From NCBI GenBank assembly GCA_020438865.1, contig JAGQTU010000011.1, positions 8,599 through 72,598 on the forward strand: a stretch of 64,000 nucleotides of DNA. The letters are read 5' to 3'. The notes under the pieces are model-generated. The model was not told where the DNA came from and did no database searches. It was given only the letters and a program-made list of their open reading frames with translations. A program made the position numbers and the translations under genes. Shown here in pieces: positions 1 to 2,510 of the stretch. Source of the stretch: Mycobacterium sp. Its GTDB lineage: Bacteria > Actinomycetota > Actinomycetes > Mycobacteriales > Mycobacteriaceae. How positions within the stretch are numbered: the stretch's first letter is position 1; every line of letters starts with the position of its first letter.

Positions 1-2016
1 TTCGCGGTGCTGACCTCGATCACCCTGATCCCGGCGGTGCTGGCTACCTTCGGACGGGCCGCCGCCCGGCGCTCGTCGCTGCTGCAGTGGTCGCGGCGTC
101 CCGAGGCCACCCAGTCCCGGTTCTGGACCCGCTGGGTCGGATGGGTCATGCGCCGGCCGTGGGCGTCGGCGCTGGCGGCGACGATATTCCTGCTCCTGCT
201 CGCCGCGCCGGCGTTCTCGATGGTACTGGGCAACAGCATGCAGCGGCAGTTCCCGGCGACCCACGAGGTCCGCGCCGGCGTCTCGTCGGCCGCGCAGGCC
301 CTCGGCCCCGGCGCGCTCGGGCCGGTGCGGGTGCTGGTCACTTTCCCCGACGGCAACGCCGCGTCGGCGCCGGCGAAGGAACCCCTGCTGGACGCGGTAC
401 GCCAGGAGATGACGAAGGCCCCCGACGTCATCTCGGTGTCGCCGCCGGTGTTCGGGAACGACTACCGCACCGCGCTGCTCTCGGCGGTGCTGTCGGTGGA
501 CCCGGAGGACCTGGCCGCCCGGAACAGCATCGACTGGCTGCGCGCCCACCTGCCCCCGGTCACCGCACCGGCGGGCGCGCGGATCGACGTCGGCGGCCCC
601 ACGGCACTGATCAAGGACTTCGACGACCGGGTGTCGAAGACCGAGCCCCTGGTATTCGGCTTCGTGGCGCTGATCGCCTTCGTGATGCTGCTGATCTCCA
701 TCCGCTCGGTGTTCCTGGCGTTCAAGGGTGTGGTGATGACCGTGCTGTCGGTCGCCGCCGCCTACGGCAGCCTGGTGATGGTGTTCCAGTGGGGCTGGCT
801 GGAGGGCCTCGGCTTCGAGCCGATCACCTCGATCGACAGCACCATTCCCCCGCTGGTGCTGGCGATGACCTTCGGCCTGTCGATGGACTACGAGATCTTC
901 CTGCTCACCCGGATCAGGGAGCGCTATCTGCAGTCCGGTGACACCCGAGACGCGGTCGCCTACGGCGTCTCGACCAGCGCGCGCACCATCACCAGCGCGG
1001 CGCTCATCATGATCGCCGTCTTCATCGGCTTCGCCTTCGCCGGCATGCCCCTGGTGGCCGAACTCGGCGTCGCCTGCGCGGTGGCGATCGCCGTCGACGC
1101 GACCGTGGTGCGGCTGGTGCTGGTGCCGGCGTTGATGGCCATGTTCGATCAGTGGAACTGGTGGCTGCCGGGCTGGCTCGCCCGCATCCTGCCGTCGGTC
1201 GACTTCGAGAAACCGTTGCCGAAGGTCGACCTCGGCGACCTGGTGATCATCCCCGACGACATCTCGGCGCTGGTGGCGCCCAACGCCGACCTGCGGATGG
1301 TGGTCAAGAACGCCGCCCGGCTGCGCGACCTGGCGCCCGATGCCATCTGCGTCGCCGACCCGCTGGCCTTCAGCGGCTGCGGGTCGGGCGACCTCGCCGG
1401 GACGGTGCAGGGCGGCGACGATGCCGCGGCGACCACGCACCCGTCGGCCCGGATCGGGGCGAGCATCGGGCAACCCACCGAACGCAGGCCGCTGCGGTCC
1501 TACCGCGTCAGCCGGGCGACCGGGCCGCGGCCGATCCATCCGGTGACGATGTGGCGCGGCCGGCTGTCGGTGGCACTGGACGCGCTGGAGAGCGAGCCGG
1601 ACATCACCGACACCGGGGTGGAACGGCTCAGCCCGGTCGAGACGACCAATGTGCAGCTACCGACCGGTGACCGGCTGCAGATTCCGACCGGTGCGGAGAC
1701 GCTGCGGCTCAAGAGCTACCTGATCATGTGCCGCAACAGCCGTTCGGACTACGCGGAATTCGCCGACCTCGTCGACTGCATGGACACCCCGACCGCCGCG
1801 GTTGTGCTCGCCGGAATCGACCGGTACTACGGTTCTAGGGAGTCTGAGCGACAATGGGTGGCGACCCAACTGGTGCGCCGGCTCGCCGATCCGAGACCCA
1901 CCGACGTCGACGACGACGGCGACCGTTGGACCGGGCCGGAAGCGGCCGACGAATGGGAGAGGATCAGACAGCGTTGCCTGGCGGTGGCAGTGGCGATCCT
2001 GGAGGAGGCGAGGTGA
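1..2016 (+). CDS. mmpL11: MmpL11 RND-family lipid transporter, 5' part outside window, with long cytoplasmic C-terminal domain
   Basis: MMPL motifs (VGGPTALIKDF, FGLSMDYEIFLLTRIRE, TSARTITSAALIM); synteny with Rv0201c/Rv0200/Rv0199/zmp1; frame is open from base 1. Confidence 0.9.
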   Translation, partial: FAVLTSITLIPAVLATFGRAAARRSSLLQWSRRPEATQSRFWTRWVGWVMRRPWASALAATIFLLLLAAPAFSMVLGNSMQRQFPATHEVRAGVSSAAQALGPGALGPVRVLVTFPDGNAASAPAKEPLLDAVRQEMTKAPDVISVSPPVFGNDYRTALLSAVLSVDPEDLAARNSIDWLRAHLPPVTAPAGARIDVGGPTALIKDFDDRVSKTEPLVFGFVALIAFVMLLISIRSVFLAFKGVVMTVLSVAAAYGSLVMVFQWGWLEGLGFEPITSIDSTIPPLVLAMTFGLSMDYEIFLLTRIRERYLQSGDTRDAVAYGVSTSARTITSAALIMIAVFIGFAFAGMPLVAELGVACAVAIAVDATVVRLVLVPALMAMFDQWNWWLPGWLARILPSVDFEKPLPKVDLGDLVIIPDDISALVAPNADLRMVVKNAARLRDLAPDAICVADPLAFSGCGSGDLAGTVQGGDDAAATTHPSARIGASIGQPTERRPLRSYRVSRATGPRPIHPVTMWRGRLSVALDALESEPDITDTGVERLSPVETTNVQLPTGDRLQIPTGAETLRLKSYLIMCRNSRSDYAEFADLVDCMDTPTAAVVLAGIDRYYGSRESERQWVATQLVRRLADPRPTDVDDDGDRWTGPEAADEWERIRQRCLAVAVAILEEAR

Positions 2017-2510
2017 CGGTGATAGCGCAACCACACCGCGATCCCTCATCCCGATCCGACACGTCTCTTCAGTTCGACGACCGTCCCGTCGAGTTCTGGC
2101 CGACCGCGTTGATCCGCTCCGCGCTGGAGACCGGCGACGTCACCGTGTGGCAGCGCATCGTGGTGGCCATCAAGCGGGACCCGTACGGCCGCACCGCCCG
2201 CCAGGTCGAAGAGGTGCTGGAGCACTCCCAGCCGTACGGAATCTCCAAGGCGCTCACCGAGGTGCTGGTCCGGGCCCGCAACCACCTGGAGGCCAACGAA
2301 CGGGCGGAGGCGGCCCGACACGTGCGGCTGCTGCTGGACCGCTCCGGTCTGGGCGAGCAGGAATTCGCTTCGCGCATCGGCGTGCTGCCCGACGACTTGA
2401 CCGGGTACCTCGATGCCGCTGTCAGCCCGCCGGCGTCGCTGATGATCCGGATGCGCCGGCTGTCGGACCGGTTCGCCAAGATGCGCGCCCAGCAGTCGTC
2501 CGACGACTGA
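2013..2510 (+). CDS. XRE-type helix-turn-helix protein (Rv0201c homologue)
   Basis: GTG start overlaps the mmpL11 stop (GTGA); C-terminal HTH LGEQEFASRIGVLPDDLTGYL; position matches Rv0201c. Confidence 0.8.
   Translation: MTVIAQPHRDPSSRSDTSLQFDDRPVEFWPTALIRSALETGDVTVWQRIVVAIKRDPYGRTARQVEEVLEHSQPYGISKALTEVLVRARNHLEANERAEAARHVRLLLDRSGLGEQEFASRIGVLPDDLTGYLDAAVSPPASLMIRMRRLSDRFAKMRAQQSSDD

Follow-up and report, generated by a model that had tools for sequence, protein, structure and literature searches.

The cytoplasmic tail of mycobacterial MmpL11 is probably the remnant of an AbiEii/MenT-like nucleotidyltransferase that docks its former XRE-type partner

Two described systems come close to the locus analysed here, the 3' part of mmpL11 and the gene that overlaps its end in a 64,000-nucleotide (nt) stretch of Mycobacterium sp. 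DNA (assembly GCA_020438865.1, contig JAGQTU010000011.1, positions 8,599 to 72,598 of the forward strand; this whole stretch is called the window below). The first consists of the same two proteins. Reciprocal BioID in M. smegmatis showed that labelling of MSMEG_0240 by MmpL11 requires the C-terminal domain of the transporter, and the AlphaFold3 model of the complex has an interface predicted template modelling score (ipTM) of 0.74, with the helix-turn-helix (HTH) of the partner outside the interface (bioRxiv 10.64898/2026.01.19.699910). The same preprint describes the two genes as co-cistronic and overlapping, notes that the partner is XRE-like, places the partner contact at the last helix of the tail and notes that a reported phosphoserine, 11 residues from the C-terminus (S956 in M. 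tuberculosis, S944 in M. smegmatis), lies in the interface between tail and partner; both genes are reported to be necessary in macrophages, and mutations in either alter drug susceptibility. It makes no fold or evolutionary assignment of the tail, the terms nucleotidyl, AbiE, toxin and DUF being absent from its text. The second system is the DUF1814 nucleotidyltransferases (NTases), among them AbiEii and the MenT toxins, which are defined by four motifs (Dy et al. 2014, PMC3985639; Cai et al. 2020, PMC7450476); the papers on MenT, which put the number of DUF1814 proteins in M. tuberculosis at four, mention neither MmpL proteins nor MmpL11 (PMC7450476). The analyses presented here connect these two systems. 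They suggest that the MmpL11 tail is a gutted AbiEii/MenT-like NTase docking its former partner, an explanation to which, taken in full, we assign a probability of about 0.8.

The window contains the 3' part of mmpL11 (nt 1–2016, + strand, 671 codons, stop TGA at 2014–2016). Frame 1 is open from the first base, the 5' end of the gene lies upstream of the window, and the full open reading frame (ORF) in the genome has ~1005 residues. PF03176 MMPL matches this ORF with an E-value of 2.8e-41 over residues 93–388, i.e. the membrane part only, and the best NCBIfam similarity is to MmpL3-type exporters. Beyond the last transmembrane segment (~nt 1185) the protein continues for ~275 further residues. 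The cytoplasmic C-terminal domain (CTD; P0001, nt 1201–2013, + strand, 271 residues), by profile homology a probable remnant of a DUF1814/AbiEii-like NTase, matched no Pfam, NCBIfam or PADLOC model with an E-value of 10 or lower. A first-pass annotation of this DNA, made from the letters alone, had quoted peptides of the tail, and these were recovered in frame 1 of the plus strand exactly where it had placed them. It had also described the next gene as starting on an overlapping GTGA and as encoding an N-terminal helical domain plus an XRE HTH, and this description was accurate: the start codon GTG (2013–2015) overlaps the mmpL11 stop in a 4-bp GTGA, and the gene (nt 2013–2510, + strand) encodes a Rv0201c/MSMEG_0240-like protein of 165 residues (P0002) with a helical N-terminal domain and a degenerate XRE-type HTH. 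Close homologues of P0002 in Mycolicibacterium and Mycobacterium are named 'XRE family transcriptional regulator' by NCBI; P0002 itself had no match in these three collections (Pfam, NCBIfam, PADLOC) at the same threshold. Close mmpL11 homologues are labelled MMPL family transporter, RND superfamily drug exporter or 'heme transporter', and those with a named host come from Mycobacterium/Mycobacteriaceae. A paralogous tail elsewhere in the genome was also considered and rejected, since the CTD has a single genomic match and the tail of the MmpL3-type protein is thus unrelated.

The CTD was compared by phmmer with 1.84e9 (1.84 billion) representative proteins. Beyond MmpL11 fragments, the 302 matches included many stand-alone proteins of ~230–270 residues (E 1e-14 to 1e-8), the C-terminal part of which pairs with CTD residues ~140–268 at 33–45 % identity. 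Circularity was excluded by two tests. A hidden Markov model (HMM) built from 120 stand-alone proteins only recovered the window CTD with 110.8 bits and an E-value of 6e-27 (Z 1.8e9) and seven further CTDs of mycobacteria with E-values of 1e-24 to 1e-29; with the reporting limit raised to E 1e6, it returned not one of 180 shuffled controls. When a CTD-only profile was aligned by hhalign to a stand-alone-only profile, the match reached 99.9 % (E 3.6e-36) over 195 columns, covering query positions 28–269 and template positions 3–222 of 227. Together, these profile comparisons indicate that the MmpL11 tail is clearly homologous to the stand-alone family.

By Pfam, NCBI naming and Foldseek, this stand-alone family is AbiEii/MenT-like. 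Of 77 diverse members, 44 matched PF08843 AbiEii with E-values of 0.01 or below (best 2.4e-8), without recurrent matches to any other family; some members exceed the PF08843 gathering score (above 22.5 bits), and some carry the NCBI label 'nucleotidyl transferase AbiEii/AbiGii toxin family protein'. The AlphaFold2 (AF2) model of one member (P0308) has a mean predicted local distance difference test (pLDDT) score of 94.1, and its top Foldseek matches in the PDB are MenT1 (8an5, 8an4), the H. pylori DUF1814 protein JHP933 (4ok0) and MenT4 (6y56), with E-values of 9e-6 to 1e-4 and a probability of 1.00; more distant NTases of the pol-beta fold rank below them. The structural link was taken from this model because a profile of the mixed alignment (tails plus stand-alone proteins) gave only chance-level matches, at E of at least 0.1, against PDB sequences. 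The consensus of the family reads AARLQxLVPDAVLVGGSAAAxHAGHRxSxDHDHVLxDLRxRFDxVLDALE ... RPLETExxxxxxGxxLxVPTxxExLRIKAWLxxxRNQTRDYLDVAAL ... VATQLARQLADPxP, very close to the AbiEii-like consensus given in the first-pass annotation, and the layout is fixed: GG, DxD 17 residues later, RNxxRD ~87 residues on, then DPRP. All four DUF1814 motifs can be located. Motifs I and II form hGG, 13 residues and DhD, in which conservation reaches at least 90 % at G37, G38, D52 and D54 and is complete at R48 and S50; motif III extends from K133 to R140, and motif IV is R144-D-x-x-D148. The stand-alone relatives thus have motifs I–IV, the PF08843 match and the best structural matches in common with MenT1-4/AbiEii. 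As a separate observation, the invariant S50 sits two residues ahead of the first motif II Asp (R-x-S-x-D-x-D), a type of position that we take to correspond to the phosphorylation site of MenT3 (S78-x-D80). This analogy suggests that the stand-alone NTases may also be under (auto)phosphorylation control.

Eight mycobacterial CTDs were aligned to the stand-alone HMM, and secondary structure was compared between the AF2 models of the tail and of P0308. The tail keeps the N-terminal helix and the first strand (nt 1282–1359, + strand, NADLRMVVKNAARLRDLAPDAICV), which align to '..VLxSAARLQELVPDAVLVGG' and read AARLRDLAPDAICV in the window; taken alone, this segment is a weak match to HMM positions 7–32. 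The strand '..PDAICV' is followed by AD (nt 1354–1359), whereas the stand-alone proteins have '..PDAVLVGG' there, so that V-A-D (nt 1351–1359) stands where motif I, hG[G/S], is V-G-G in the relatives. From nt 1360 to 1536 (+ strand), a variable linker of low confidence (residues 53–118, pLDDT mostly below 50) replaces the motif I/II sequence GG(S/T)AAAxHAGHRxSxDxD, and both its length and its sequence differ in all eight mycobacterial MmpL11 proteins. The helix HPVTMWRGRLSVALDALE (nt 1537–1590, + strand) is, by alignment and secondary structure, the counterpart of the post-motif II helix HVLxDLxxRFDxVLxALE; after it the tail lacks ~20 residues, corresponding to two or three core strands (WVTxRxxPGKIILGxLGGIETG in the stand-alone proteins). 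The C-terminal half (nt 1615–2007, + strand) is well conserved. It comprises a beta hairpin (VQLPTGDRLQIPT) and the whole helical lobe, matches HMM positions 92–228 at E 4.8e-24, and is modelled (residues 140–271) with pLDDT of ~87–98 in most 10-residue blocks, with dips to 66 and 81–82.

Within this lobe, motif III (KLxAaxxR type) is found as K171-S-Y-L-I-M-C-R178 (nt 1711–1734, + strand). R178 is invariant and K171 at least 90 % conserved across tails and stand-alone proteins, and the K-to-R spacing of 7 equals that of AbiEii K173/R180 (PMC3985639). By alignment, a motif IV-like sequence (+DxxD type), R181-S-D183-Y-A-E186, follows at nt 1741–1758 (+ strand); this region is R-S-D-Y-A-E in the window, R-D-Y/F-A-D/E in most other mycobacteria and R-D-Y-L-D in the stand-alone proteins. 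K171, R178-N179 and D183-Y184 (nt 1711–1752) thus pair with the K, RN and RDY of the relatives, as the first-pass annotation had read them, and K171, R178-N179 and D183 are conserved genus-wide. Its reading that GG had become AD and that no DxD was left also applies well beyond this sequence: motifs I and II (GG; R-x-S-x-D-x-D) are absent from all eight mycobacterial MmpL11 tails aligned residue by residue. A GG inside the linker of this species (VQGGDDAAAT), which MAFFT and hmmalign set on motif I, was discarded as chance or a relic, being missing in other species and followed by no DxD.

Compared with MenT1-4/AbiEii, the tail keeps motif III and the C-terminal lobe, together with a sequence that only approximates motif IV, and differs by the absence of motifs I and II, the loss of about three core strands, the fusion to an RND transporter, the failure of PF08843 to detect it and the lack of a significant fold match. 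The predicted match to AbiEii/Pol-beta NTases consequently held for the profile link to the AbiEii/MenT-like stand-alone family and not for the tail itself, which has no Pfam or significant Foldseek match because its catalytic half is deleted and not merely mutated. Mutation of motif I or motif II alone abolishes the toxicity of AbiEii and greatly reduces its GTP binding (PMC3985639); since the tail lacks both motifs, it is almost certainly inactive as an enzyme, by analogy with these mutants, and canonical nucleotide binding by the remnant is unlikely. Of the catalytically dead "nucleotide- or partner-binding" domain that had been proposed, partner binding is borne out by the M. smegmatis data (bioRxiv 10.64898/2026.01.19.699910) and nucleotide binding is made improbable by the deletion of motifs I and II. 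The observations of the first-pass annotation are thus confirmed and its interpretation is supported, with the correction that the tail is a remnant and not a complete fold.

Two further features of the tail were recorded. ADPLAF(S/T)GC (window nt 1354–1380), which follows the first strand without a gap, is conserved in most of the eight aligned tails, occupies the position of the GG(S/T)AAA nucleotide loop and is followed by hypervariable sequence; it may be a new functional site, with conserved Cys, Ser and Thr, or a structural cap. When mapped by distance from the C-terminus only, the reported phosphoserine falls on the S of RCLSVAV in five of the eight aligned species and on Ala in the window (RCLAVAV, ~nt 1969–1989) and in two others.

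The stand-alone loci examined came from assemblies and from 401 evenly sampled Actinomycetota genomes, and 22 of them were assessable. A P0002 homologue adjoins the stand-alone NTase in all 22, downstream on the same strand in 21 and divergent in one, as had been anticipated for an Rv0201c-like XRE gene. Both stand-alone loci with called genes show a 4-bp overlap between NTase and partner, like that of mmpL11 and its partner. The stand-alone partners are 27–42 % identical to P0002 in both its N-terminal helical domain and its HTH, with pairwise E-values of 3e-17 to 3e-34, the top match (42 %, E 3e-34) being encoded downstream of a stand-alone NTase. A Pseudonocardia plasmid has a like order, an 'AbiEii/AbiGii toxin family protein' followed by a 'helix-turn-helix domain-containing protein'. 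In its bicistronic overlapping arrangement of an NTase with a DNA-binding partner, its sporadic occurrence and its presence on plasmids, the stand-alone module resembles the AbiEi/AbiEii and MenA/MenT operons, and we infer by analogy that the ancestral pair was a toxin-antitoxin (TA) system. It differs from AbiE and MenAT in its partner, which has an XRE-type HTH (HTH_31/HTH_3) and a novel helical N-terminal domain and is neither a COG5340 winged-helix AbiEi nor a small MenA1. The idea of a type IV TA-like NTase/XRE module fused to the exporter is thereby upheld as to the NTase/XRE module and not as to the type, since an XRE partner and an NTase gene in first position do not make a canonical type IV AbiE pair.

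A 332-residue protein (P0196) in which NTase and partner form a single chain was not counted as a Rosetta stone, since one indel across the 4-bp overlap could yield the same product. Some stand-alone partners (L008, L009, L011-L013, L021, L022, L031, L034) form a second subgroup with a typical XRE helix, G(I/M)(S/T/A)Q(S/P)(D/E)VSK(L/I)ERR, and a weaker match to the partner HMM; to judge from these helices, the partner family has at least two HTH types. Distant plasmid relatives of the NTase have other neighbours: on P. putida pKF715A (L088), an overlapping upstream ORF of 75 residues and an ISL3 transposase, and on Deferribacter pDF308 (L089), a downstream ORF of 112 residues next to cas6. 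The type of partner seems to vary outside Actinomycetota.

Each of the 17 genomes sampled from the window's genus had the fused form, and it was absent from the 234 genomes examined elsewhere in the family. Seven of these 234 had a match, five as open frames of stand-alone size and two as shorter or weak fragments. All 61 high-quality genomes of the genus encode the partner, with identities of at least 61 %. The stand-alone module is sporadic, occurring in 17 of ~390 other Actinomycetota genomes (~4 %), and its NTase lies on seven plasmids of three phyla (Actinomycetota, Pseudomonadota and Deferribacterota), one of them by an ISL3 transposase and one by cas genes; a phage collection contained no protein related to the stand-alone NTase. 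An unrooted maximum-likelihood tree of the C-terminal lobe common to both forms was built from 37 MmpL11 tails (29 of them from loci around the MmpL11-linked partner) and 39 stand-alone proteins, and a single branch with 100/100 support splits all of the former from all of the latter. One member of the genus (L086, G666:C99:53500-57000; nt 1587–2734, minus strand) carries an extra, intact stand-alone NTase of 224 residues with its partner, besides the MmpL11 pair. This NTase has GG and R-x-S-x-D-x-D and groups with the stand-alone proteins in the tree, and the module provides a natural within-genus control. Intact motifs and a wide, mobile distribution outside the genus, together with a degenerate, monophyletic form in one genus, point to a single capture and fusion followed by decay.

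The recognition helix of the partner has also changed. Columns were counted in 39, then 47 MmpL11-linked partners across the genus and compared with 13 stand-alone partners of the closest subgroup. The latter read G-T-S-(P/A)-S-R-(L/M)-S-T-Y, with T, the first S and the S before T invariant and R in 12 of 13, whereas the 47 MmpL11-linked partners read G-V-x-x-x-(D/E/Q)-(L/F)-x-x-Y, with T replaced by an invariant V and R mostly by an acidic residue. The remaining four positions of the helix are the most variable columns of an otherwise almost invariant protein. In the window, the helix starts with V-L-P-D-D-L-T-G-Y (nt 2382–2408, + strand) in place of an ancestral T-S-P-S-R-L-S-T-Y. The partner of the extra stand-alone module found in a mycobacterium retains GTSASRMSTY. 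PF13560 is detected on only four of 120 P0002 orthologues, and the stand-alone partners match HTH_31/HTH_3. By alignment with the 434 repressor recognition helix, we take the changed columns to be base-contacting positions, and we infer from these sequences that the MmpL11-linked partner has lost the ancestral operator recognition.

Our explanation of these data is as follows. The ancestor of the genus would have acquired a two-gene module, a DUF1814 NTase followed by an XRE-type partner overlapping it by 4 bp, and the NTase gene would have been joined in frame to mmpL11 at its 3' end. The fused NTase would then have lost its pol-beta core, comprising motifs I and II plus about three strands, with a flexible linker in its place, and would have kept the first helix and strand, the post-motif II helix and the C-terminal lobe with motifs III and IV. 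This remnant would be a docking platform that holds Rv0201c/MSMEG_0240 at the cytoplasmic face of the transporter, most likely through the old NTase-partner interface including the last helix, so that the tail-partner interface would have been inherited from the NTase-partner pair. The partner, its DNA-reading residues lost, would most likely act as a subunit or adaptor of MmpL11 and not as a classical repressor. A positive role of this kind is favoured because one and the same compound selected frameshifts in mmpL11 or in its partner in M. smegmatis (10.1101/464990) and because both genes are reported to be needed in macrophages. A wider proposal is that a mycobacterial ancestor captured a whole mobile TA-like module, that the toxin became a docking domain and the antitoxin an obligatory subunit that no longer binds DNA, and that export and drug susceptibility are controlled by the association of the two, which phosphorylation at the inherited interface may gate; we put it forward tentatively, at somewhat less than even odds.

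A rival reading accepts the same origin and differs only as to present function: the partner could be a membrane-tethered transcription factor, a DNA-binding XRE regulator sequestered by the tail, as by anti-sigma factors or in PtsG/Mlc, and freed by a change in the state of the transporter or in the phosphorylation of the tail. TA antitoxins commonly autoregulate, the partner has an XRE-type HTH fold, and the AlphaFold3 complex with its free HTH and the phosphoserine at the interface would suit such a switch (bioRxiv 10.64898/2026.01.19.699910). This reading is nevertheless unlikely, though worth keeping in view: the otherwise near-invariant protein varies most at its base-contacting positions, the conserved Arg has become Asp or Glu in most of the 47 species, P0002 has no Pfam HTH match, and selection by one drug of loss of function in both transporter and partner would be unexpected if the partner simply repressed mmpL11. 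More doubtful still is a tail that acts as a non-catalytic sensor, binding a nucleotide or phosphorylated ligand through motifs III and IV and coupling transport to metabolic state. The genus-wide conservation of K171, R178-N179 and D183 and the contribution of motif IV to GTP binding in AbiEii (PMC3985639) speak for it. These residues may, however, be structural or part of the partner interface, and mutation of motif I or II alone is enough to cut GTP binding greatly in AbiEii (PMC3985639), whereas the tail lacks both motifs and the strands as well.

The direction of the events could also be the reverse, with stand-alone proteins arising by fission of an MmpL11-type tail, or the likeness could be convergent. 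The unrooted tree alone gives no direction, and nothing else in the data specifically supports either idea. Both are very improbable, as the stand-alone proteins have the full catalytic core that the tail lacks and extend to other Actinomycetota classes and to plasmids from Pseudomonadota and Deferribacterota, with the fused form confined to one genus, and E-values of 1e-27 to 1e-36 exclude convergence.

Several points weigh against the explanation of the tail as a gutted NTase docking its former partner. Its membership in DUF1814/MenT is reached through its intact relatives, i.e. by a transitive sequence link: the tail's own AF2 model (mean pLDDT 70) had no significant Foldseek match in the PDB (best E 1.0; MenT1 at rank 18, E 1.8), and PF08843 searched against the six-frame translation of the whole genome gave no match at E up to 1. 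Motifs III and IV, kept in a 'dead' domain, could mean a residual ligand-binding role. As to the ancestral pair, the NTase gene comes first and the XRE-type partner downstream, in contrast to the characterised AbiE and MenAT systems (the AbiEi-type antitoxin gene lies upstream), and no data on toxicity, neutralisation or nucleoside triphosphate binding by the stand-alone family were found. The loss of operator recognition is read from sequence only, and the authors of the preprint hold DNA binding by the partner to be possible (bioRxiv 10.64898/2026.01.19.699910). The frameshift data come from few resistant mutants with several mutations each (10.1101/464990).

The interaction of MmpL11 with its partner was already known; what appears to be new is where the tail comes from and which fold it derives from, that a stand-alone module exists, and that the partner HTH has decayed. 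A literature search returned no paper co-mentioning MmpL11 with AbiEii or nucleotidyltransferase, and none giving an NTase origin for the tail, in agreement with the impression of the first-pass annotation that this fold assignment had not been described. An NTase origin would account for the binding reported in 2026 by a likely inherited interface, and the soluble stand-alone pair offers a tractable comparator for structure determination and interface mapping. Nucleotidyl transfer and ancestral operator binding are predicted to be lost, which shifts the focus from a transcription-factor model to a subunit/adaptor model. The stand-alone proteins define a new DUF1814 subfamily, with an XRE partner and the NTase gene first. 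As in other domesticated toxin domains and pseudoenzyme scaffolds, a catalytic fold would have been kept for protein binding after loss of the active site; unlike them, both members of the pair are retained here, and one is fused to a membrane transporter. To our knowledge, and in line with literature searches that were also empty, no such domestication of a pair has been described for DUF1814, and this may be the first TA-like pair domesticated together onto a transporter.

Downstream of the pair, the window encodes a CoA_binding_2 protein (nt 2512–2937, + strand) and two predicted proteins, membrane or of unknown type, on the minus strand (nt 2924–3613 and 3610–4242). An ORF of 718 residues (nt 4104–6260, + strand) contains a HEIGH motif and is, by this motif, a candidate M13/Zmp1-type zinc metallopeptidase. 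The gene order from nt 2512 to 6260 resembles the Rv0198c-Rv0202c neighbourhood of M. tuberculosis.

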